Shown: piece by piece, positions 30,528 to 61,600 of the stretch
Position numbering within the stretch: position 1 is the stretch's first letter
How the letters are laid out: each line of letters starts with the position of its first letter
Assembly: GCA_034521595.1 (NCBI GenBank)
Contig: JAXHMG010000002.1
Location: 32,001 to 96,000 of the forward strand
Direction: 5' to 3'
DNA: 64,000 nt
Source of the DNA: Gemmatimonadota bacterium
GTDB lineage: Bacteria > Gemmatimonadota > Gemmatimonadetes > Longimicrobiales > Gaopeijiaceae
Made by a program: the position numbers and the translations under genes
Notes under the pieces: generated by a model
Database searches by the model: none
What the model saw: only the letters and a program-made list of their open reading frames with translations
What the model was told of the DNA's origin: nothing

Positions 30528-32657
30528 TCATCGGCCGAGTCGCACGGTGAGCCGTGCCGTCCGGCCGGGATCGGGAAAGGCGAAAATCAGCGAGTCTTCG
30601 TGGTCGAAGACCCGGTCCAACTCGACACCGACCTCGAGGTCGCCCAGGGGCGTCGCCCAGCTACGGGCGAGCGCGAGATCGGTGGTCCAGAACGCGGGCA
30701 ACCGGTTGACCCGGTTGGGCACCGGATAGCGGGCGCCCACGTAGTCGGTCGTGATGGCTGCCCGCCAACGGTCCGACGACCATGTGGCGACGGTGCCGCC
30801 GCCCCATTCGGGACGGTACACGACCTGCGTGTCGTCCAGGCCCGGACGGTCGTAGGTCGTGCGGTTCCAACTCACGTGCCCCCGCAGGTCCAACCCGGCG
30901 GATGGTCGTCGCAGGCGCGCGCTCACCTCGGCACCTCTCCGGCGCACGTCCCGGTTGCGTGGGCTCCAGACGAATCGGTAGTCCGGAAGCCAGATGATCA
31001 TCCCCTCGATGTCACCCTGGTACGCTTCGAGCTCGAGCATCGCCATGGTCCCGGAGAGCTCGTGCTCGTAGCTCGCGCCGGCCACCCACTCGGAAGGCAC
31101 GCGCTCGGCTTCGAGGTCCGGATTCGGCTCCACGCCCACGCCCTCTCGGAAGAACTGGTCGCCCAGCGTGGGCGGGCTGAACGAGCTCCGGTGCCCCAGT
31201 CGTGCCCCGAAGCTTCCGCCCGACCACGCGAGGCCGACGTCGTGGCTCACGTACCACCGGGAAGGCAGCCCCGAGCGGTCGAGGCGAGCGGTCGCCGAGA
31301 GCGTGGCTCCGAGGGGCATCGTTCGGGAGCCCGACAGCCACGCGCCCGCGTCCGTGCGACGTACGGTCCCGCGCCCCTCGGCCAGCTGGGTGCTCTCCAC
31401 GCGGAGGTGCGTCAGCGATAGCCCGACCGCGACCCTACCAACCGACCCCGGCCGCCAGGAGCCTTCGATCTCCCCACCGGCGCTCCGCAGCGTGGTACGA
31501 TCGTCGAACGGGTCTCCGAACGGGGGCGCCGAGTCGCGGTGCTCCATCCGCTGGGTCACGAAGTACCCGTTGGTCGAGAGGGCCCGCCGACCGGACGCCT
31601 CCACGTCGAGGGATCCGAAGGCCCGCATCCGCCGGAGCTCCTGACCTCCGGTTCGTGACGGGGCGAAGCTCCGTCCGGGAAGACCGCGCGCCAGCCGCTC
31701 ACCCGCGACGCCGAGTCGAAAGCGCGTGTCCTCACGCTCCCCGACCCACTCCACCCGCGCGTGCTCTCCGTCGGCGTGGGCGTTCTCGCGCGTCGCTTCT
31801 CCCCCTCCGGCTTCTTCCGGCACGTCGAAATCGAACCGACCGTCGAGGCGACGGGCACCGGCCGCGACACGGATGTCCCCCAGCGGGACTCCCTGTTCGT
31901 AGGTCGCGTCGAACGAGCGCTCCCCCAGCGACCCTACGGTCACGCCGGCGCTGCGCTCACCTTCCTCCCGCCCGCCCGTCTCCACCAGGACCACGCCGCC
32001 CTCGGCCCGCGCTCCGTACCGGGCCGAGCGGCCACCCGGCAGCACGTGGATGGCGGACACGCTCCCGGACGGAACGGTCGAGAGGTCGGCCTCGCCCGTG
32101 ATTGGATCGTTGATCGGGACACCGTCGACGAGAACGAGCACGGCATCACCTCCGCTCCCACGGATCGACGGCACCTCCGCCCCACCGCGTCCCCGCGACT
32201 CGACCCGCACCCCGGGGAGACCGTCCACCAGGTCGCCCACCGACCCGCCGGCCAGCGCGTCGAGGTCGGCCGCCCGGAGCGAGCGCGCTCCTTCCGGTGT
32301 GGCATCGACCCGGGCCACCACCCCTTCCACCTCGACCGCTTCGAGGAGCAACTCGACGCGAACGCTCGTGACGGCGCCGTTCTCGATCACGACCGTGCGC
32401 GTCACGGCGGCGTAGCCGGGCGCCCGAACGCTCAGGGTGTAGGAGCCGGGCTCGATTCCGCGGAGACGGAACGCTCCGGCGGCATCGGTCGTCGTGAGGC
32501 TCGGGGAACCCTCGAGCCGGACGTCGGCGGACGGCACGGGACGCCCGGAGAGCACGTCGATGACGTCGCCCCGAAGCTCGCCGGGAAACTGAGCCCCGAC
32601 GCCGGTTGCCGTTACGAGGAGCGCGAAGGCTCCCAAAAGATACGAAAAAACCCGCAC
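30528..32657 (-). CDS. btuB: TonB-dependent receptor, cobalamin
   Basis: Signal peptide, carboxypeptidase-regulatory-like N-domain, plug SIRGSGGDAVLVLVDGVPIN, SARYGA, NPDLEAE, PGRT; first gene behind B12 riboswitch. Confidence 0.85.
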   Translation of the reverse strand: MRVFSYLLGAFALLVTATGVGAQFPGELRGDVIDVLSGRPVPSADVRLEGSPSLTTTDAAGAFRLRGIEPGSYTLSVRAPGYAAVTRTVVIENGAVTSVRVELLLEAVEVEGVVARVDATPEGARSLRAADLDALAGGSVGDLVDGLPGVRVESRGRGGAEVPSIRGSGGDAVLVLVDGVPINDPITGEADLSTVPSGSVSAIHVLPGGRSARYGARAEGGVVLVETGGREEGERSAGVTVGSLGERSFDATYEQGVPLGDIRVAAGARRLDGRFDFDVPEEAGGGEATRENAHADGEHARVEWVGEREDTRFRLGVAGERLARGLPGRSFAPSRTGGQELRRMRAFGSLDVEASGRRALSTNGYFVTQRMEHRDSAPPFGDPFDDRTTLRSAGGEIEGSWRPGSVGRVAVGLSLTHLRVESTQLAEGRGTVRRTDAGAWLSGSRTMPLGATLSATARLDRSGLPSRWYVSHDVGLAWSGGSFGARLGHRSSFSPPTLGDQFFREGVGVEPNPDLEAERVPSEWVAGASYEHELSGTMAMLELEAYQGDIEGMIIWLPDYRFVWSPRNRDVRRRGAEVSARLRRPSAGLDLRGHVSWNRTTYDRPGLDDTQVVYRPEWGGGTVATWSSDRWRAAITTDYVGARYPVPNRVNRLPAFWTTDLALARSWATPLGDLEVGVELDRVFDHEDSLIFAFPDPGRTARLTVRLGR

Positions 32658-52742: not shown

Positions 52743-53333
52743 TCAGCGCCAGCCCTCCAGCACCCCGTAGGAGCGCACGGACAGGCGGCCCGATTCGATC
52801 GGACCGGCGACCCAGACCACCGTCCCGGCCGCACGTCGGAGGTCCCCGGAGACGGCCCGGAGACCGGTCGCCTCACCACTTCCCAACGGCTCCACGCTCC
52901 ACCCGTCCGTTCCCTCGTCACGCAGCACGCCGAGCGTCGCCGGCATGCCGTCCACCTCCACGACCTCGACCTCGGTCACCTCGAGCTCGCCCCCCGGCGT
53001 GAGCCCCGGCCCGCACGCTCTCACGGTCGTGCCCGTCAGGAGCCTCACGTTCCCCGCCATCGTCCCGAGGAGCTCGACCCTCGGGCCGTCCGCCGGATCC
53101 ACCCAGGTCCGCGGGGCGATGTCGACGCCCTCGGAGACGACGACGCCCCGTACGCACTCCCCGGCCTCACGGGCCGCGGTGACCTGCCCATCGGCTCCCT
53201 CGGAGGGGCCGTCCGATCCGGACGACGAAGCGCACCCGGCGGACAGGAGCGCCACGAAGGGAATGGCCGCCGCGCGGCGGCGCCGAGAAAAAGCGAGAGT
53301 CCGTGGTGGGCGAACGCGGAAAGCCTTGCTCAT
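52743..53333 (-). CDS. Hypothetical lipoprotein
   Basis: Lipobox SAGC; ATGA overlap with the upstream gene. Confidence 0.6.
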   Translation of the reverse strand: MSKAFRVRPPRTLAFSRRRRAAAIPFVALLSAGCASSSGSDGPSEGADGQVTAAREAGECVRGVVVSEGVDIAPRTWVDPADGPRVELLGTMAGNVRLLTGTTVRACGPGLTPGGELEVTEVEVVEVDGMPATLGVLRDEGTDGWSVEPLGSGEATGLRAVSGDLRRAAGTVVWVAGPIESGRLSVRSYGVLEGWR

Positions 53334-55936
53334 TGGATCCTCAACACCCAGAGGACCATCCCTTCCGGGACCGCGCCCTCGTCGGCCGGACTCCGGATCC
53401 GGAGGCTCGTGGGATCGTGGGCATCGGGAGGGGTCCACTCGAGGTAGGCGCTCGACGCGGCCCGGACCTCCACGTCGAGCGTGGGCTCGGCCGCCGTGCT
53501 CGTGTAGGGGCGCAGACGGGCTTCCTCCACGACGCTCTGGAAGACGTTGTGGACGTTCCACGACGGGAGCCAATCGCCCATGCCGGGGCGGTCGTCGGCC
53601 CAGAGGGTGGCGGCGAACTCCACGAGTAGGGATTCGCGGGTCTTACCGGTTACCTCGAGAAGCGCGTCGAGTCCGTTGGCCGTCGGCCGGGTCAGCTCCC
53701 GCATCAGCGCCTCGTCGTCGAGCTTGTCGTCCCCCGTCTGATCCAGCACCCAGCGGAGCAGCATCGACGGCACGCCGTACACCGCGCGTCGGTTCTCGCA
53801 GGGACCGGCGTTGCCCTCGCTCTTCCGGCCGATCCAGGAGCACTGCTCCGGCGCAAACTCCTCGGGTGGTGTATCCCGTCCCTTGAAGCCGAAGTAGAGC
53901 GCCATGTCCACGACCCAGTCGCGGTACCAGCCGGGCTCGGCGTTCTCGGAGTCCGCCCCGTCCCGCCAGTCGGCGGAGTCGAGGTTCATCCGGGGCCCAT
54001 GGTCGAGCACTTCGTAGCCCACGAGCTGCTCGGCCAGGGTCGCGCCACCCTCGAGCTCCCAGGACGTCTTGGGCTTGGGTTCGGGTTCGGGCGTCGTGAA
54101 GAGCGCGGTGAACTGAAGGATGTGCGTCAGCTCGTGCGCGATGAGCGGCGGGTACTGGACGAGCAGGTCCGCCACCTCCACCGTATCCCCGTGGACGCCC
54201 TCGGGATCGGGGGTCCGCCCGTAGAACATCTCCGCCTGGTTGCTGGTGCCGCACTGGTCCTGGCCGACCAGGTCACCGCTGAACACGAAGCCCGCGAAGT
54301 TCTCCTTCTCATTGACCTCCTTCGTGATCAGCACGAGGACGAGATCGTTGTCGTCCACGTCGGCGAACTCGCCGAAGTTGTTTTCCAGCGTCGGCAGCGT
54401 GGTCTGCTCGAGAAGGCCGTCCAGGTTTTGATACTGAGTCCTGGTGAAGCCCGCGGTCGGATTGTCCACGTCTTCGAGGAAGGCCGCGGCGTCGCCCACG
54501 TGACGCACGACGGCCTGGACTTCCGCGCCGGTGTCGCAGCTTTCCGGCACCGTGAAGTCCAGGGTCTCTCCCTCTTCGGGGGGCGCGCGCTGGGGTGCCG
54601 CGGCTCCGCCGGCCGCCGTCGCGAGGCTCGGCGTCCCCGCCCCCAACGACTCCAACCACGCCCGCTCCGCCGCCCGGATGCGGGCTTCACCGCTCCGGTC
54701 CGGACGCGCCTCCGCGAGGCTCGCGAGGGCCGGCGAGCCGCCCGGAGCGGGCGCCCGGCGGACGGACGTCACGGTGGCCCCCGACGTCGTGCCCTCCGGC
54801 GCGCGGAACGACCCCACCGCCTCCGACCCCGTCCCGGAACGAGCAACCGTCGTGGTCGCGCCGTCGTCCTCCGCCACGAGGCGGGACCCGGTCCGTGACG
54901 CGAGACGGGTGGGCGTGAGCGAGCTCGCCACCTCGGAGCTCGAGAGGACGCCCACGAGATACCGCTCGTCGGACGAGCCGGTGTCCAGGTGGAGGCATCC
55001 CTCGGTCGCGTAGCGGCCGTCGCCCACCGCGAGAGCGTGCACCGCCTCCGAGGGCGGCCGGACTTCGGCCGAGACCGAATCGACCATGTCCCGCGCGGCG
55101 ACCCGGAGCCGCCCTTCCCGGGGCGGCCGGCAGTCCGCGTCGGGAACGATCACCCGCAGCTCCACGGACGAGGCCGACGTCACCTCCGCCGCGGTGCCGT
55201 CCAGGGTGACCTCGTTTCCGGCCATCTCCGTGTCGAAGCCCAGTCCGCGGATCGTCGCCGTGTCGCCTTCGATCATCGGCGACGGGCTCACGCTTCCGGC
55301 CACGACCCGGTCGTCGCCCACGAACGCCGCAAGCGCGCCGGCCACCCCGTCCGCCACCACCGAGAGGCTGTCGGCCCCGTCTCCGACGGCCTCGACCAGC
55401 CCCGAGGCCGACACCGTGATCACGGACGTGTCGTTGGACGTCCAGCTCACGGACTCGGTCGGCATGGGGTTGCCGTTCGCATCCACGACCGTCGCGACCA
55501 CGGTGGTCGTGTCCCCGGGGTTCTCGAGCGTCACCGGGTCCGGAAGGAACCGGAGTCGGTCCGCGACCTGCTCGACCGACACGGAGGCGGACGCTCGGGC
55601 CTCGTCGGCCGAAGCCGTCACCGTCGCGCTCCCGTTGCCGATCGAGGTCACCACGCCCGCGCCCGAGACCGAGGCGACGGCCGGGTCCGAGGAGCCCCAG
55701 GTCACGCCCACGCCTTCCATCGGCTCGCCGTTCTGGTCGCGCACGGTAGCGGCAATGGCCGCCGTGTCACCGAGCGCGGAGAAGTCCAGCTCGGACCTCG
55801 AAAGGTCGATCGTGCTCGCGGCAGGCTCTTCGCTCCCGGTCGGGCTGTCCGAGCACGCGGTGATCAACGTGGCCGGCAGGAGCGCGAGCGTGACGATACG
55901 GCCGGTGCGGCACTTCCGATGCAGGTCCATATTCAT
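53330..55936 (-). CDS. Surface lipoprotein: Big_2 Ig domains, IPT/TIG domain and HExxH zinc metallopeptidase-like domain
   Basis: Lipobox ITAC; VTWGSSDPAVASVSGAGVVT, WTSNDTSVITVSASGLV; IRGLGF; IAHELTHILQ...WELEGGATLAE. Confidence 0.8.
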   Translation of the reverse strand: MNMDLHRKCRTGRIVTLALLPATLITACSDSPTGSEEPAASTIDLSRSELDFSALGDTAAIAATVRDQNGEPMEGVGVTWGSSDPAVASVSGAGVVTSIGNGSATVTASADEARASASVSVEQVADRLRFLPDPVTLENPGDTTTVVATVVDANGNPMPTESVSWTSNDTSVITVSASGLVEAVGDGADSLSVVADGVAGALAAFVGDDRVVAGSVSPSPMIEGDTATIRGLGFDTEMAGNEVTLDGTAAEVTSASSVELRVIVPDADCRPPREGRLRVAARDMVDSVSAEVRPPSEAVHALAVGDGRYATEGCLHLDTGSSDERYLVGVLSSSEVASSLTPTRLASRTGSRLVAEDDGATTTVARSGTGSEAVGSFRAPEGTTSGATVTSVRRAPAPGGSPALASLAEARPDRSGEARIRAAERAWLESLGAGTPSLATAAGGAAAPQRAPPEEGETLDFTVPESCDTGAEVQAVVRHVGDAAAFLEDVDNPTAGFTRTQYQNLDGLLEQTTLPTLENNFGEFADVDDNDLVLVLITKEVNEKENFAGFVFSGDLVGQDQCGTSNQAEMFYGRTPDPEGVHGDTVEVADLLVQYPPLIAHELTHILQFTALFTTPEPEPKPKTSWELEGGATLAEQLVGYEVLDHGPRMNLDSADWRDGADSENAEPGWYRDWVVDMALYFGFKGRDTPPEEFAPEQCSWIGRKSEGNAGPCENRRAVYGVPSMLLRWVLDQTGDDKLDDEALMRELTRPTANGLDALLEVTGKTRESLLVEFAATLWADDRPGMGDWLPSWNVHNVFQSVVEEARLRPYTSTAAEPTLDVEVRAASSAYLEWTPPDAHDPTSLRIRSPADEGAVPEGMVLWVLRIQ

Positions 55937-56018
55937 AACATGCCCCCTGTGGCGCCGACGGGCCAGCGCGGACCCGCACGCCGTGCTCCGCGCGCGACCA
56001 CGTGACGCTCACCCGTCG

Positions 56019-56060
56019 TTGCGCGCGCGGTATGAGTATACCATACTCATATTATGAGTA
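56019..56060 (+). promoter_or_regulatory. TA promoter/operator: TTGCGC-N17-CATACT overlapped by three TATGAGTA half-sites
   Basis: TATGAGTAT-ACC-ATACTCATA palindrome (56031-56051) plus TACTCATA-T-TATGAGTA (56044-56060) over the ATG. Confidence 0.7.
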
Positions 56061-56476
56061 AGCGCTTGCAGGTCGTCATGGACGACGCGGAGTACGACGA
56101 GATCCAAGACGCGGCCGACGCCGCGCGGCTCACGATATCGGCGTGGGTGCGGCGGTCCTTGCGGGCCCAGCGCGCACGCGCCTCCAACCGACCGGAAGGA
56201 GCCACGGTTCCCGCCGTGGCAGGGCCGGCCCCTTCTCCGGCCCGAGACGGAACCGGACGACCGCCGGACGACGGGCTCGTGCGCGCGGTCATGGAGCGGC
56301 ACGGGATCTCTTCCCCCGCGGAGGCCGTCGACTTCGCGCTCCGGCGTGCGGCCGAGCCGCCGCTGGCGCCGGGAGACCTCCTCGCGCTGCGAGGCACCGG
56401 GTGGTCGGGAGACCTCGAGGCGGTCCGCGCTCACCCGATGCGCGGCACGAAGGGTTCGGCCGGAGCCCGGTCGTGA
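56054..56476 (+). CDS. vapB: VapB-type antitoxin (RHH domain plus VapB-like C-terminal half)
   Basis: MSKRLQVVMDDAEY...ISAWVRRSL RHH; DDGLVRAVMERHG...EAVDFALRR...LRGTGWSGDL; GTGA overlap with the PIN gene. Confidence 0.75.
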   Translation: MSKRLQVVMDDAEYDEIQDAADAARLTISAWVRRSLRAQRARASNRPEGATVPAVAGPAPSPARDGTGRPPDDGLVRAVMERHGISSPAEAVDFALRRAAEPPLAPGDLLALRGTGWSGDLEAVRAHPMRGTKGSAGARS

Positions 56477-58182
56477 TCCTCGTCGACACGTCGGCGTGGG
56501 TAGCCTATCTACGGGGAACGGGCTCTGAAGCGGATCACGCCCTCCAGCGACTCCTGTCGGACCGCGCACGGCTGTTCACGACGGACACCGTCATGGTGGA
56601 GCTCCTCGCCGGAGCGGGGGACGAGGAGGCCGCCCGGAGGGTGTCCGGGCTCCTCTTCTCGCTCGAGCGGTGCACGCCCCCAGGGCCGCTGGACCTCGAG
56701 CGAGCGGGGCACCTCTACCGAGCGGAGCGGAAGGGCGACCATGATCCTGTCAGCCTTTCTTCGTGTCTGGTCGCGGCCGTCGCGCTACGGGACGACCTCC
56801 CGGTCCTCGCGGAGGACGACGACTTCGCGACCCTCGCCCGCACCTCCGGCCTCCGGCTGTGGGAAACGGACAGGAGCGCCCCGCGCCAGGCGCCGACCGC
56901 TCCCGCGGCCCGCGCGCCCGACGTAGCGCCCGCTCGGGCACGGTCCACCTCCGCGGAAGCGGTCGTCCTCGTCGTCGAAGACGAGCCGTCGGCAGCACGG
57001 CTGCTCGACGATGCGCTGGCCGATCCGGGGCGCCGGCTGGTGCATGCGGGGTCGGGCCGGGAAGCGCGCGCCCGCATCGCCGAGCGCCCGCCCGGGGCGA
57101 TCGTCCTCGACCTGATCCTCCCCGACGAAGACGGCCGAAACCTTCTGGCCGATCTCCGTCGAGATCCGAGCACGAAGGACGCCGGGGTCGTGATCGTGAC
57201 GGGGAAGGCCGGCCCTCGGACCCGGGAGGAGTGCTTCGCGCTGGGGGCGGACGCGTTCTTCGACAAACCCTTCGACGAACCGAAGCTTTCCCGCGCGGTC
57301 GAGGGCATCCTGGTCGAGGGACGCGCTTCGACGCCCGACCCCGACCCCCTCCTCGCCCCGCTCACCCTCTCGGAAGTGCAGAAGCGGTTGAAGGCCGACC
57401 GGGAAGGCACCCCCGGCCAACGCACCTGGACCGTCGGCCTCCTGGAGATCACGACCGGCGCGGGCGAAGCAGGCTCCGCGACCGAGGACGGCGACGGCCG
57501 GCTCCTCCCCAGCCTGCTCCGAACCGTCATCCAGGCGCTGCTCGCGCGCCTCGAGGAAGGCGAGCTGCTCGCCCGTTGGGGCGTCAACCAACTGGTCGTG
57601 GTGAGCGCCCTGCGGTCCGAAGCCGAGCTCCTCACGCTCGTCCGTGACATGTCGACTCTCCAGGCCGCCGGCGACCACGTGTCGGGCGGGGTGCGGCGTG
57701 TAGGCCACGACGAGGACCTGCTCGATGCCGTGGCCACCATGGCCGCACGGATCGACGACATAGGGACGGACCCGGCCCCGTCCATCGTGCCACTCGACGA
57801 AAAGCCAACCGGCCGGCCACGTGCCGCGCTCGTCGAAGACGACCCCATCACGGCGGGACTGGTGCGTCACCGCCTCGAGCGGAGCGGCTTTCTCGTCGAC
57901 CACTCCACGGACGGGGAGGTAGCACTCGACGCGATCCTGAAGGAGCCGCCGAGCGTGGCCATCCTCGACATCCAGCTTCCCTCCATGGACGGCTTCGAGA
58001 TCCTGCGCCGGATGAAGGAGCACGACACCACGCGCGACGTGCCCGTGCTCATGTTGACCTCGTTGGGTCGCGAGCAGCACGTCCGCCGCGGCTTCGAGCT
58101 GGGCGCGGACGACTACGTCACCAAGCCGTTTTCGCCCAGCGAGCTCCTGACCCGGGTACTCCGGCTGGTGCGCCGGAAATGA
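56473..58182 (+). CDS. VapC-like PIN domain fused to REC-degenerate GGDEF-REC response regulator (569 aa)
   Basis: ILVDTSAWV...VMVELLAG...CLVAAVAL...EDDDF; VLVVEDE..LDLILP..VTG..KPF; ARWGVNQL; LVEDD..LDIQLP..LTS..KPF. Confidence 0.85.
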   Translation: MILVDTSAWVAYLRGTGSEADHALQRLLSDRARLFTTDTVMVELLAGAGDEEAARRVSGLLFSLERCTPPGPLDLERAGHLYRAERKGDHDPVSLSSCLVAAVALRDDLPVLAEDDDFATLARTSGLRLWETDRSAPRQAPTAPAARAPDVAPARARSTSAEAVVLVVEDEPSAARLLDDALADPGRRLVHAGSGREARARIAERPPGAIVLDLILPDEDGRNLLADLRRDPSTKDAGVVIVTGKAGPRTREECFALGADAFFDKPFDEPKLSRAVEGILVEGRASTPDPDPLLAPLTLSEVQKRLKADREGTPGQRTWTVGLLEITTGAGEAGSATEDGDGRLLPSLLRTVIQALLARLEEGELLARWGVNQLVVVSALRSEAELLTLVRDMSTLQAAGDHVSGGVRRVGHDEDLLDAVATMAARIDDIGTDPAPSIVPLDEKPTGRPRAALVEDDPITAGLVRHRLERSGFLVDHSTDGEVALDAILKEPPSVAILDIQLPSMDGFEILRRMKEHDTTRDVPVLMLTSLGREQHVRRGFELGADDYVTKPFSPSELLTRVLRLVRRK

Positions 58183-59252
58183 GCCTCCCGACCGACACCA
58201 CCCTGCGGCTCGCCATGGCCGCCGTCGTCCTGCTGTCCGTGTTCACCCTGATCTTCGTCGCCTACGCGTTCTACCTGCACCTGAAGGGGCAGCGACTCGA
58301 GCGACGGCGCAGCCGCCTCGAGGCCGCCTGGAAGAAGCGGCTGCTCGACGCCGCCACGGGAGAGGCGACGCCCGCTCCCGATCCCGACCGGCCGAACGCC
58401 GAAGAGCGAGAGGTTCCGCCCGAAGATCGGGTCCTCTTCCTGGAGCTCGTGACGGATTACGCAAGGGCCCTTCACGGTCCGGAGCGCCGGAACCTGGAAC
58501 AGGTGGCCGCACCCTATCTCGACGCGCTGGACCCGCTGCTCGACGACGCCCACCCCTATCGGCGGGCCCACGGACTCGACATCCTGAGCGAGCTGAGCCT
58601 CGAGGAGGCGCGCGAGCGGATCGTCCGCGGGTTGAGCGACGAATCCGGCCTGGTCGCGATGGTCGCGGCCCGTGCGTTGGCACGGAACGGGGACCCCGAG
58701 CACGTCCCGCTCCTCCTCGCGAGGCTGGAGGCCTTCGAGAACTGGAGCGCCAACTACCTGGCGAGCCTGCTCTCGAGCTTCGGCTCCGCCGCCGTGCCCT
58801 ATTTGCGCGCGCTGGCCATGGACACGTCCGCCACCGGACGCTTCCGTTGCGTCGCGCTCCAGGCCCTGCGGGAGCTGAACGACCTGGAGTCGGTGGAGTC
58901 GGCCGTTCGCCTGCTCCCGGACGAGAACGACGCCGAGGTCCAGTCCGACCTCATCCGCCTGATCGGCCGCCTCGGTCGCCCCGAGCACCTCGACGTGATC
59001 CGGGAACACGCGTCGTCTCCCGTCCCTCACGTCCGAGCCGCGAGCCTCCGGGCCGTGAGCGAGCTGAGCGATCGCCGTACCTCCGACGTCGAGCTGGTCT
59101 CGCGGGGGCTCGACGATCCCTCACCGTGGGTGGCCCTCCAGTCCGCCCACGGGCTGATGAAGCTCGGACGCGCGCACGAGCTCTCCGCCCTGGCCACGTC
59201 CGAGAGTCCGCGCGCGGACCTGGCCGCCGAGGTGCTGGAAGCCCACCGATGA
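58179..59252 (+). CDS. HEAT/PBS-lyase repeat protein with N-terminal TM
   Basis: LLDDAHPYRRAHG, GLSDESGLVAMVAARAL, GLDDPSPWVALQSAHGL; ATGA coupled. Confidence 0.85.
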   Translation: MSLPTDTTLRLAMAAVVLLSVFTLIFVAYAFYLHLKGQRLERRRSRLEAAWKKRLLDAATGEATPAPDPDRPNAEEREVPPEDRVLFLELVTDYARALHGPERRNLEQVAAPYLDALDPLLDDAHPYRRAHGLDILSELSLEEARERIVRGLSDESGLVAMVAARALARNGDPEHVPLLLARLEAFENWSANYLASLLSSFGSAAVPYLRALAMDTSATGRFRCVALQALRELNDLESVESAVRLLPDENDAEVQSDLIRLIGRLGRPEHLDVIREHASSPVPHVRAASLRAVSELSDRRTSDVELVSRGLDDPSPWVALQSAHGLMKLGRAHELSALATSESPRADLAAEVLEAHR

Positions 59253-60739
59253 TCGACACCCTTTTCGATTCGCCGATCGGTCCCTTCATCGGACCCGCGC
59301 TGTGGGGCGCCAACGCGCTCGTCTTCACCTACTTCGTCGTCCTGAACGCGTCGTACCTGACGCTGAGCGTGATCGCGTTCCGTGCGGTCAAGCGGTACGC
59401 CGAGCGCCTGCGGTCCCTGGACGTCAAGGAGACCATCGCGCACGCGGGCGCCCCACCCATCACGCTCATCGCTCCCGCATACAACGAGGAAGCGACCGTC
59501 GTCGAGTCGGTCCGCTCCCTCCTGTCGCTGAACTATCCCGAGTACGAGGTGATCGTCGTCAACGACGGCTCGGGTGACGCCACGGTGGAGCGGATGATCG
59601 AGGCGTTCGACCTCCGCCCGTCCCCGAAGATGTCGACCTTCGACGTGGATACGGCCGAAGTGCGGCGGACCTACCGGAGCCGACGCCACCCCCACCTCTG
59701 GTTGGTCGACAAGGAGAACGGGGGAAAGGCGGACGCCCTCAACGCCGGGCTTTGTTACTGCAGGACCCCGCTCTTCTGCGCGATGGACGCGGACACCCTG
59801 CTCGAGCGCGACGCGCTCATCCGAGTCGTGCGACCCTTCCTCGAGGACGCGCGAACCGTGGCCGCGGGAGGGATCATCCGCATCGCGAACGGCTGCACCA
59901 TCGAAGGGGGCGCCGTGACCGACATCCGGCTCCCGGACAGCCTGGTCGCCCGCCTCCAGGTACTCGAGTATCTGCGCGCCTTCCTCGTCGGGCGCATGGG
60001 CTGGGATACCGTGAAGGGCAACCTCATCATCTCGGGGGCGTTCGGCATCTTCCGGCGTTCCACCGTCATCGCGGCGGGAGGGTTCTCGACGAAGACGGTG
60101 GGCGAGGACATGGAGCTGGTCGTACGGCTCCATCGCTACTGCCTCGATCACGAAATCCCCTACCGTGTCAGCTTCGTACCCGACCCGGTGGCCTGGACGG
60201 AGGCCCCCGAGAGCCTGCGCATCCTGGGGCGGCAACGCGACCGCTGGCAGCGCGGCCTGAGCGAATCGTTGACGATGCACCGAAAGATGCTCCTGCGCAC
60301 GAAGTACGGGAGAATCGGGATGGCGGTCATGCCGCACTTCTACTTTCTGGAGATGTGGGGTCCTCTGGTCGAGGTGATGGGCTACGTGGTCTTCCTGCTC
60401 ACGGTTCTGGCAGGGTGGGCATCGCCGGCGTACGTGTCGGCGTTCCTCATGGTGACCATCGTGCTGGGGATCGCGCTTTCCGTAGCGGCGCTCGCCCTCG
60501 AGGAGCTCGCCTTCCGCCGTTACCCCCGTCCGACCGACCTCCTGCGCCTCTTCGTGCTCGCCGTGACCGAGAACGTCGGGTACCGGCAGATCACCGCGTT
60601 CTGGCGGCTGCGCGGACTCGTGCGATTCCTGCGCAAGACGAAGGGTTGGGGGGTGATGCCCCGCGCGGGCTTCGGCGGAGGGAAGACTCGGGCGGCCGCG
60701 ACCGAGACGGCCGGATCCGAAGCCTCCGAGGAAGGGTAG
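59249..60739 (+). CDS. Processive GT2 glycosyltransferase (PgaC/IcaA/cellulose synthase-like)
   Basis: PAYNEE, NDGS, GGKADALNAG, DAD, GEDME, QRDRW; C-terminal TMs. Confidence 0.92.
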   Translation: MIDTLFDSPIGPFIGPALWGANALVFTYFVVLNASYLTLSVIAFRAVKRYAERLRSLDVKETIAHAGAPPITLIAPAYNEEATVVESVRSLLSLNYPEYEVIVVNDGSGDATVERMIEAFDLRPSPKMSTFDVDTAEVRRTYRSRRHPHLWLVDKENGGKADALNAGLCYCRTPLFCAMDADTLLERDALIRVVRPFLEDARTVAAGGIIRIANGCTIEGGAVTDIRLPDSLVARLQVLEYLRAFLVGRMGWDTVKGNLIISGAFGIFRRSTVIAAGGFSTKTVGEDMELVVRLHRYCLDHEIPYRVSFVPDPVAWTEAPESLRILGRQRDRWQRGLSESLTMHRKMLLRTKYGRIGMAVMPHFYFLEMWGPLVEVMGYVVFLLTVLAGWASPAYVSAFLMVTIVLGIALSVAALALEELAFRRYPRPTDLLRLFVLAVTENVGYRQITAFWRLRGLVRFLRKTKGWGVMPRAGFGGGKTRAAATETAGSEASEEG

Positions 60740-60745
60740 CGGCTC

Positions 60746-61600
60746 GTGCCCCACCGCCTGCCCGTATTCGGGGCGCTCGCATGCGCGCTGGCCTGCGTCG
60801 GCATCGGGAGCGGCGATCCGGCGGTCGCTCTCGACGTGGCGAGGGACACCGCGCCGCGCATGGAGATCGCGTTTCTGGACGTGGGACAGGGCGACGCGAC
60901 GCTGATCCGCTCTCCCGACGGTCGGGCCGCGCTGGTCGATGCCGGACCGGGCGACCCCACCGCCCAGCTCGAAGCGCTCGGCGTCGATCGGCTCGAGCTC
61001 GTGGTCGCGAGCCATCCCCACGCCGACCACATCGGGGGCATGGAGGCCGTCCTGGATGCCTTCCCGGTGGGGGCGTACATGGACAACGCTCAACCGCACA
61101 CCACGGCCACATACCTGAGCCTGATGCGCCGCTTGAGCGCGCGGGACGATCTAACGTACCTGGAGGCGGTGCCCCGTACCCTGACGCTCGGAGACGTCAC
61201 CCTCGAGGTGCTCCCCTTGCCGCCCGGGGACGACCTGGCCCACAATGACCGCTCGATCGGGATCGTCGTTCGCTTCGGAGACTTCTCGGCCTTGCTCAGC
61301 GGAGACTCGGAGCGTCGTGAGTTGTCGTACTTCCTGGAACAGGGTGCCGTGCCCGACATATCGGTACTCAAGGCGCCCCATCACGGGAGCCGCAACGGCT
61401 TCACGACGAGCTTTCTCCGCGCGGCTCGGCCGGAGGTCGTCGTGATCCCGCTTGGCGACAACGGGTACGGCCATCCCCACGAAGCGGCCGTCCGGGCGTA
61501 CCGTGCGATGGCGCGCGAGGTCTACCGCACCGACCGGAACGGCCGGATCACCATTCTCGGACACGAGGACGGAAGCTACCGGGTGAGGACGGAGCGATGA
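60746..61600 (+). CDS. ComEC/Rec2-type metallo-beta-lactamase-fold hydrolase
   Basis: FLDVGQGDA, SHPHADHIGG, NDRSI, LSGD, KAPHHGS, YGHPH, RTDRNG. Confidence 0.9.
   Translation: MPHRLPVFGALACALACVGIGSGDPAVALDVARDTAPRMEIAFLDVGQGDATLIRSPDGRAALVDAGPGDPTAQLEALGVDRLELVVASHPHADHIGGMEAVLDAFPVGAYMDNAQPHTTATYLSLMRRLSARDDLTYLEAVPRTLTLGDVTLEVLPLPPGDDLAHNDRSIGIVVRFGDFSALLSGDSERRELSYFLEQGAVPDISVLKAPHHGSRNGFTTSFLRAARPEVVVIPLGDNGYGHPHEAAVRAYRAMAREVYRTDRNGRITILGHEDGSYRVRTER

Follow-up and report, generated by a model that had tools for sequence, protein, structure and literature searches.

The 64,000-nucleotide stretch analysed here (the window; positions 32,001 to 96,000 of contig JAXHMG010000002.1 from a Gemmatimonadota bacterium) contains one gene, at 56473-58182 on the forward strand, in which a VapC11-like PIN toxin domain is fused in frame to a two-receiver regulator. 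As judged from the alignment, the fused PIN domains have lost residues that serve catalysis and substrate binding, and have kept residues equivalent to those touched by the antitoxin arginine in the VapBC11 complex. We give an even chance to the reading that the inactive PIN domain docks the regulator to the ribbon-helix-helix (RHH) antitoxin encoded by the overlapping upstream gene, that the complex represses the operon from a palindrome, and that receiver phosphorylation tunes this repression. The fusion is carried by an uncultured Gemmatimonadota genus from salt pans.

Architecture and distribution of the fusion

The gene is a single open frame encoding 569 residues, with a GTG start at 56473 and a TGA stop at 58182; the GTG overlaps the TGA of a 140-residue open reading frame (ORF) at 56054-56476 (GTGA). 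From the N-terminus, the protein consists of a PIN domain, a disordered Ala/Pro linker, a first receiver (REC1), a degenerate GGDEF domain and a second receiver (REC2). The two genes are laid out as follows:

56054..56476, + strand: VapB-like antitoxin gene, 140 aa
56473..56862, + strand: PIN domain, residues 1-130, VapC11-like
56863..56952, + strand: disordered linker rich in Ala/Pro, residues 131-160, of varying length and sequence
56953..57321, + strand: REC1, residues 161-283, D213/T243/K265 present
57346..57768, + strand: degenerate GGDEF (palm) domain, residues about 292-432
57820..58179, + strand: REC2, residues 450-569, PhoB/OmpR-type receiver, the best conserved domain

The PIN profile PF01850 matches residues 2-122 (E 2.4e-11, 44.8 bits against a Pfam cut-off of 23.6), and the Response_reg profile PF00072 matches the protein twice (E 2.6e-47, 160 bits against a cut-off of 30.2). 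No ATG, GTG or TTG is in frame between codons 57 and 190, and codon 190 already lies within REC1; therefore, REC1 cannot be initiated separately. The AlphaFold2 model has a mean predicted local distance difference test (pLDDT) score of 82.4. Its folded parts are a helical/beta PIN domain (residues 1-128), a receiver (163-282), a palm-like alpha/beta domain (299-429) and another receiver (450-568); the pLDDT of residues 133-159 is below 50. The initial annotation had described the same 569-residue frame, with PIN, a linker lacking start codons, REC1, degenerate GGDEF and REC2, and this anatomy is confirmed by the ORF, the Pfam matches and the codon scan.

A word-indexed homologue search, in which 8000 candidates were scored, returned 243 proteins at E<=0.001. 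Among the best 120 of the 243, at least 19 non-self full-length cluster representatives (550-609 aa, 50-77% identity, at least 98% query coverage) contain both PF01850 and PF00072, and one more match with both profiles is a 370-aa fragment. The few names that these homologues carry at source are 'response regulator [Gemmatimonadota bacterium]' and 'DNA-binding response OmpR family regulator/predicted nucleic acid-binding protein'.

The fusion was also followed in 41 related genomes, a set that takes in one unpublished genome (G025) with receiver matches only, on which no claim rests. Three genomes of the same genus (G001, G003 and G004) contain a full match in one open frame without stops. The match in G002, also of this genus, falls into two pieces inside one open frame, and that in G006 extends only from residue 78 onward; the fusion was not found in G005, a same-genus genome that is 98% complete. 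Altogether, four or five of the six other species of the genus carry it. Two genomes from two other genera, G012 and G007, have a match that begins at about residue 155, i.e. without the PIN domain. Across 401 genomes sampled evenly from the phylum, a match covering both PIN and REC1 was found only in the genome of the window, and REC1-only matches were found in 7 others.

A look for RNA runs containing the locus listed none; all runs that came up were DNA, from salt-pan and microbialite metagenomes. Two sequencing runs, X1 and X2, come from one salt-pan sample that is possibly the source of the window DNA. A 3504-nt contig of run X1 spans 55900-58125 and a 339-nt contig of run X2 spans 56691-57029, each with 0 differences. 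Neither the stop or misassembly in the linker nor the consistently separate genes in relatives that the initial annotation had considered was found. The window is from a metagenome-type assembly and the PIN domain is broken in one relative (G006), which would suit an artefact, whether a pseudogene in decay or a sequencing error in the linker that merged two genes. However, the same fusion is conserved in 19 other cluster representatives from several sources, four other species genomes carry it without stops, contigs of both runs cross the linker, and the PIN domain is under purifying selection (see below). The probability of an artefact is negligible; the fusion is genuine.

Contig depth leaps at 58084-58167 (183, 37.5 and 848 in three runs), with many loose ends. 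This is not a feature of the gene, because the conserved receiver motif around GADDYVTKPF draws contigs of many other organisms.

Residue losses and selection in the PIN domain

The closest sequence to the PIN domain in the Protein Data Bank (PDB) is that of VapC11 (6a7v_A, E 3.1e-19), a likeness that had been correctly named in the initial annotation; the next is VapC15 (4chg_A, E 2.8e-13). For VapC11, PMC6265470 reports that the D5A substitution abolishes toxicity, that Arg94 is crucial for tRNA binding, that Asp98 is situated in the active site, and that Arg62 of the antitoxin VapB11 forms salt bridges with Asp5, Glu44 and Asp116. The VapC11 segment 'sinDCLIAALA' is aligned to 'slsSCLVAAVA' of the window protein, so that Ser97 (codon at 56761) takes the place of the Asp, as had been noted before (SSCLVAA instead of DCLIAA). 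The equivalent of Arg94 is Val93, and D5, E43, D115 and D117 are retained.

A profile-free PIN search of 1.84 billion representatives gave 856 matches at E<=0.001, of which the best 150 were examined. Nearly all of these 150 stand alone and measure 120-150 aa; the long ones belong to the fused family, whole or as fragments, except for one 295-aa protein with an unrelated tail. We aligned 22 fused PINs with 147 other matches and compared the key positions:

Asp98 (VapC11 numbering): Asp in 0/22 fused PINs (Ala 11, Ser 5, Val 5, Ile 1) and in 138/147 others; several of the 9 non-Asp others are fragments
Arg94 (VapC11 numbering): Arg in 2/22 fused PINs and in 114/147 others
D5: 22/22 fused PINs
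E43: 22/22 fused PINs
D115: 18/22 fused PINs
D117: 18/22 fused PINs

Thr6 is present in 22/22 fused PINs. The four-acid metal site (D5, E44, D98 and D116 in VapC11) is thus incomplete: the window PIN has D5, E43 and D115, no fused PIN has Asp at the D98 position, and the alignment of fused PINs contains no compensating conserved acidic residue. With both the Asp98 and the Arg94 equivalents lost, the fused PIN is most likely no longer an RNase. Nor is it the small free-standing toxin of a VapBC pair, as its frame continues to a total of 569 aa.

The initial annotation had left two alternatives, an inactive, domesticated PIN through which the antitoxin controls the regulator, and a phosphorylation-gated RNase. 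In the latter, the PIN domain would still be an RNase, with its activity or its release from the antitoxin set by the receivers. Three of the four acidic residues are kept in 18/22 members and Thr6 in all of them, the cognate antitoxin is retained with translational coupling, and PMC5499597 tabulates some PIN-like nucleases with only 2-4 acidic residues as possibly active. However, the Asp98 equivalent is absent from 22/22 and the Arg94 equivalent from 20/22, both being kept in most of the 147 other relatives; one species (G001) lacks three acidic residues, and no conserved acidic residue compensates. We consider a gated toxin improbable. The same losses, together with the retention of D5, E43, D115 and the antitoxin arginine, speak for the domesticated inactive PIN.

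The 22 fused PINs form one branch, with a Shimodaira-Hasegawa-like approximate likelihood ratio test (SH-aLRT) value of 93, in a rapidly computed tree of 153 PINs (these 22, 130 matches of 120-200 aa, and the toxin of G022; shorter and longer matches were left out). Conservation was then compared region by region. Mean pairwise identity was calculated over 20 full-length members, and the ratio of nonsynonymous to synonymous substitution rates (dN/dS) was obtained by the Nei-Gojobori method from five genomes, G006 being left out as its PIN domain is broken. Most pairs are saturated (dS about 1 or more), and the dN/dS figures are those of the closest pair, L003-L006 (dS 0.4-0.5):

PIN: identity 0.60; dN/dS 0.15
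Linker: identity 0.24; gap fraction 0.60
REC1: identity 0.61; dN/dS 0.25
Middle domain: identity 0.50; dN/dS 0.17
REC2: identity 0.80; dN/dS 0.04

Purifying selection, which the initial annotation had named as a test of the fusion, is therefore present. The dN/dS of the PIN domain and its identity, compared to that of the linker, indicate that it is maintained as a protein domain and not merely read through.

The antitoxin and its candidate operator

The 140-residue antitoxin contains a probable N-terminal RHH (residues 1-44), a disordered Pro/Ala linker (45-70), and VapB11-like helices with a toxin-binding tail (71-126) that includes Arg125. Residues 71-125 match VapB11 in the PDB (6a7v_K, E 3.6e-9), including the tail 'GWSGDLEAVR', and residues 2-43 give a NikA-like Pfam match (E 6.7e-6, 26.6 bits against a cut-off of 27). 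The AlphaFold2 model of the antitoxin (pLDDT 71.8) contains helices at 11-23, 28-44, 73-83, 88-100, 106-113 and 121-126, and its N-terminus is extended. Foldseek matched the model to VapB11 at E 9e-4 and to the RHH proteins PutA, CopG and NikA with template modelling (TM) scores, by target, of 0.6-0.88 but E values of 0.2-1.5.

The antitoxin gene is present in 5/5 other fused loci. Its stop overlaps the toxin start (NTGA) in 5/6 fused loci, the exception being G001, where the PIN frame starts 8 nt past the antitoxin stop. Across the genus, the first 40 residues hardly vary, Arg125 is invariant in 8/8 antitoxins, and about 35 cluster representatives share the same two-domain build. We also predicted the structure of PIN residues 1-135 together with antitoxin residues 68-140. 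The score was 0.54, compared to 0.01 for the best of 3 controls; contacts agreed by at least 82% between runs, and the pLDDT of the partner was at least 70. The mark applied is reached by 58/80 solved complexes and 2/110 mismatched pairs, and at 0.60 or below it is reached by 7/80 and by both mismatched pairs; the result was graded as weak support. It is not counted as evidence, because the VapBC11 complex (6a7v) is solved and the pass may be memory.

To locate regulatory sites, the 200 nt before eight antitoxin genes (six from fused loci and two from free-standing VapBC loci) were aligned. The window contains the following elements:

56019..56059, + strand: candidate promoter/operator, from the alignment
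56019-56024, + strand: -35-like TTGCGC, followed by a 17-nt spacer
56042-56047, + strand: -10-like CATACT, with the ATG at 56054, 6 nt on
56033-56049: palindrome TGAGTA-N5-TACTCA, over the -10-like element
56054-56059: third half-site ATGAGT, at the start codon

TTG, TGAGTA, ATACTCA and ATGAG are invariant in the six genus loci and nearly so in the other two, and the layout is common to 8/8. The exact palindrome is unique in the 3.49-Mb genome; allowing one mismatch adds 3 sites, and a control pattern gives 1. From this layout we infer a leaderless, autoregulated promoter before the antitoxin gene. The conserved MSKRLQVVM (the ribbon strand) and the operator likewise point to an antitoxin start at 56054, probably on a leaderless mRNA. 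The public call of this gene, P0271 (132 aa), apparently begins at the internal Met9 (window 56054-56078), and many antitoxin homologues of 114-115 aa look truncated in the same way.

Free-standing VapBC pairs of the same family are present in other genera, in G015 (L019 1094-1917) and G022 (L018, minus strand). Their toxins retain 'VDCLIAA' or 'KDCLIAA' as well as the Arg, and a stop codon follows the PIN domain. Both pairs share the two-domain antitoxin and the operator palindrome with the fused loci. The second RHH of the G015 antitoxin keeps the strand RVRIEVDV, in place of which the fused clade has the Pro/Ala linker. The ancestor of the fused module probably resembled the G015 and G022 pairs.

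Compared to VapBC11 and VapBC15 of Mycobacterium tuberculosis (6a7v and 4chg), the window pair has the same kind of PIN domain and an upstream protein similar to VapB11, including the GWxGDL..R tail. The antitoxin gene also comes first and overlaps the toxin start, and a palindromic operator lies at the promoter. Different from those modules, the window PIN lacks the Asp98 and Arg94 equivalents, and 440 aa of regulator continue where the toxin stop would be; the window antitoxin has an extra, probable RHH at its N-terminus, and the strand of the VapB11-type RHH has become a Pro/Ala linker in the fused clade.

The regulator, its operon and the proposed mechanism

Both receivers of the window protein contain the Asp/Thr/Lys set (D213/T243/K265 and D499/T529/K551), in agreement with the initial annotation. 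REC2 is PhoB/OmpR-like, and its E455, D456, D499, T529 and K551 are each present in 20/20 full-length members. REC1 is less uniform, with D213 in 19/20, T243 in 15/20 and K265 in 16/20. Between three and five of the 20 members have lost Thr243 (5), Lys265 (4) or part of the acidic pair (4) from REC1, REC2 being intact in all; by these counts, REC1 is degenerating in a sub-clade.

The degenerate GGDEF assignment of the initial annotation holds by homologues and fold, but not by Pfam: PF00990 does not match the window protein at E<=1. Among 27 aligned family members, PF00990 matches 17 at E<=1 (best 1.3e-5) and PF01850 matches 21. ARWGVNQL lies exactly at 57571-57594, as had been claimed, and aligns with ARWGGEEF of GGDEF-positive homologues. 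Uncharacterised proteins of the build Hpt-REC-GGDEF-REC, such as P0030, P0033 and P0048, are 28-33% identical to the window protein in an alignment that covers REC1, GGDEF and REC2. Different from the window protein, they have an N-terminal Hpt domain where it has PIN, an intact GGDEF domain (E 1e-32 to 1e-43) and an intact RxxD. In the joint alignment with them, the fused clade has GVNQL, GVDQL or GVDEL at the GGEEF position and EEGE at the position of the RxxD I-site, where the relatives have RKSD, RQSD or RRSD. The fused clade also has a variable insert in place of the DxDxFK..ND..GH..GD substrate and metal block, and lacks the C-terminal AD..LY.AK..GRN block. It is likely that Hpt-REC-GGDEF-REC is the ancestral architecture of the regulator; PIN occupies the place of Hpt.

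With the whole model, the top Foldseek matches are PleD (2v0n, E 2.4e-16), WspR (3bre, E 1.1e-12) and DgcR (6zxm, E 2.7e-11), spanning 298-411 columns. Model residues 295-430 follow the pattern alpha, beta, alpha, two strands, alpha, beta, alpha. A PDB sequence search with the middle domain alone gave chance-level matches only (best E 0.087). Like these three proteins, the window protein has a receiver with a further domain, probably a palm domain, after it; different from them, its order is REC-GGDEF-REC, and it has lost the GGDEF motif, the substrate/metal block and the RxxD I-site. The middle domain, identified from its homologues and predicted fold, is a dead GGDEF without I-site, and the window protein is therefore neither a cyclase nor an I-site receptor of cyclic di-GMP.

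Two further genes follow the regulator:

58179..59252, + strand: HEAT-repeat protein gene, hydrophobic N-terminus, HEAT_2 E 1.1e-18
59249..60739, + strand: family-2 processive glycosyltransferase (GT2), PgaC/IcaA-like exopolysaccharide synthase, Glyco_tranf_2_3 E 3e-21

The ATG of the HEAT gene overlaps the regulator stop (ATGA), and 4-nt overlaps join successive genes from the antitoxin through GT2. The GT2 protein matches TIGR03937 (PgaC_IcaA) at E 5.5e-42, but with 144 bits against a cut-off of 422. HEAT and GT2 genes follow the regulator in loci L002, L003, L005, L006 and L007; L004 ends before the HEAT gene.

We propose the following mechanism. In one Gemmatimonadota genus, a VapBC11-type module would have been captured upstream of a REC-GGDEF-REC regulator gene, and the toxin would have lost its stop codon and become fused to the regulator. 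The inactive PIN would keep its fold and the acidic pocket for the antitoxin arginine, and would thereby still dock the VapB-like protein. The RHH of the latter would bind the conserved palindrome that overlaps the -10 element and the start of the leaderless transcript. With its GGDEF dead and its I-site gone, the regulator itself lacks an output by DNA binding or catalysis, which would therefore come in trans from the PIN-VapB pair. Phosphorylation, mainly on REC2, may alter the pairing of the PIN domains, which would in turn alter VapB/PIN repression of the operon that encodes the antitoxin, the PIN-regulator, the HEAT protein and the PgaC-like synthase.

Several observations weigh against this mechanism. 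Because some PIN-like nucleases are tabulated in PMC5499597 with only 2-4 acidic residues, the loss of one Asp is not proof of inactivity. The RHH match of the antitoxin lies 0.4 bits below the Pfam cut-off, and a strict sigma-70 scan calls no plus-strand promoter before the antitoxin. The PIN of G006 (L020 about 1640-1700, G006:C167) has lost roughly residues 59-77 to an internal deletion that breaks the frame and leaves the N-terminal 58 residues in a different one; the public protein P0024 (501 aa) begins inside the PIN remnant. It is possible that the PIN domain is dispensable or really decayed in G006, or that this is an error in a 75%-complete assembly. The PIN of G001 (L004 1498-1890, G001:C276), the most divergent, lacks the equivalents of D98, D115 and D117, and the idea of an arginine pocket that is always kept is therefore weakened. 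Finally, G012 has an operon of regulator, HEAT and GT2 without PIN and without antitoxin, with an amidase upstream, and G007 has a regulator without PIN on a contig too short to show more. These PIN-less relatives indicate that the regulator has a function independent of PIN and antitoxin.

Another explanation is a frozen accident combined with promoter capture, in which the module landed upstream of the regulator and its toxin was inactivated and fused. Here, the PIN would be no more than a translated N-terminal appendage, perhaps dimerising, the antitoxin would only autoregulate, and the regulator would control the HEAT protein and the PgaC-like synthase by protein-protein contact, as in its PIN-less relatives. 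In G012, the same HEAT and GT2 genes do come after PIN-less homologues; in G031, a GT2 homologue with 47% identity has REC-GGDEF-REC genes nearby; and the PIN is broken in G006. In addition, as REC1 has no start codon of its own, the PIN frame must stay open, which alone selects against stops and frameshifts. However, an open frame explains neither the PIN dN/dS of 0.15 nor the 60% identity of the PIN compared to 24% in the linker, and a frozen accident gives no reason for the conserved antitoxin tail or for the loss of catalytic residues from PINs that retain those contacted by the antitoxin. We regard it as a serious but unlikely explanation.

The arrangements in G012 and G031 also indicate that the link between regulator and synthase is older than the fusion, and that in G031 suggests an order-wide link between this regulator family and PgaC-like synthases. 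At G031:C84 (L027 2000-6800 and 9368-10765), several tandem receiver genes and two REC-GGDEF-REC homologues adjoin a PgaC-like synthase gene.

The docking mechanism proposed above has a working analogy in FitAB of Neisseria gonorrhoeae. In FitAB, an RHH antitoxin binds DNA in complex with a PIN protein, which makes the hold on the operator stronger. Different from the window protein, FitB stands alone as a PIN whose acidic site is intact, and FitAB has no two-component input. Catalytically inactive PIN domains are also used as scaffolds, as in SMG5. Utp23 is described in PMC5499597 as an apparently inactive nuclease with an RNA-binding function. The PIN fold of Utp23 and SMG5 likewise outlasts the loss of acidic residues; however, both are RNA-processing factors of eukaryotes, and lack antitoxin partners as well as receiver domains.

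No published description of a PIN-receiver fusion was found, including by term searches of PMC5499597 and PMC2701414, the supplementary tables of PMC5499597, which may list architectures, not being covered; this agrees with the initial annotation, which knew of no described example. The main text of PMC5499597, a classification of the PIN superfamily, does not contain 'response regulator', 'receiver', 'CheY' or 'two-component', and our own survey of PIN subfamilies covered VapC11-like PINs only. The parts are all of known kinds; their combination and the apparent domestication are new.

If the docking mechanism is true, it would represent a new type of response-regulator output, in which a DNA-binding partner is recruited through a dead nuclease. 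More tentatively, and with the balance of our judgement slightly against it, a toxin-antitoxin (TA) module may have been rebuilt as a two-component output. The dead toxin would be the tether and the antitoxin the DNA-binding domain in trans, and phosphorylation would replace the toxin:antitoxin ratio in setting operator occupancy and exopolysaccharide synthesis. To our knowledge, there are few clear cases of a selfish TA module taken over for ordinary regulation. Each step of the proposed domestication has a counterpart in living relatives: VapBC pairs that stand alone but share the two-domain antitoxin and the operator, the fused and probably inactive form, and PIN-less regulators before the same synthase genes. 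Two small proteins and a 40-bp operator would make a defined system in which to study how an external signal can take over TA co-repression; practical uses are limited, as the genus, from salt pans, is uncultured.

Two further genes flank the region. On the plus side, 6 nt past the synthase gene, a gene at 60746-61600 encodes a metallo-beta-lactamase (MBL)-fold protein like the C-terminal domain of ComEC/Rec2 (E 1.1e-23, below the cut-off). A divergent gene on the minus strand (53330-55936) encodes an 868-aa protein with Big_1, Big_2 and TIG Ig-like domains followed by a C-terminal part without assignment, and is syntenic with the operon in the five other loci of the genus.

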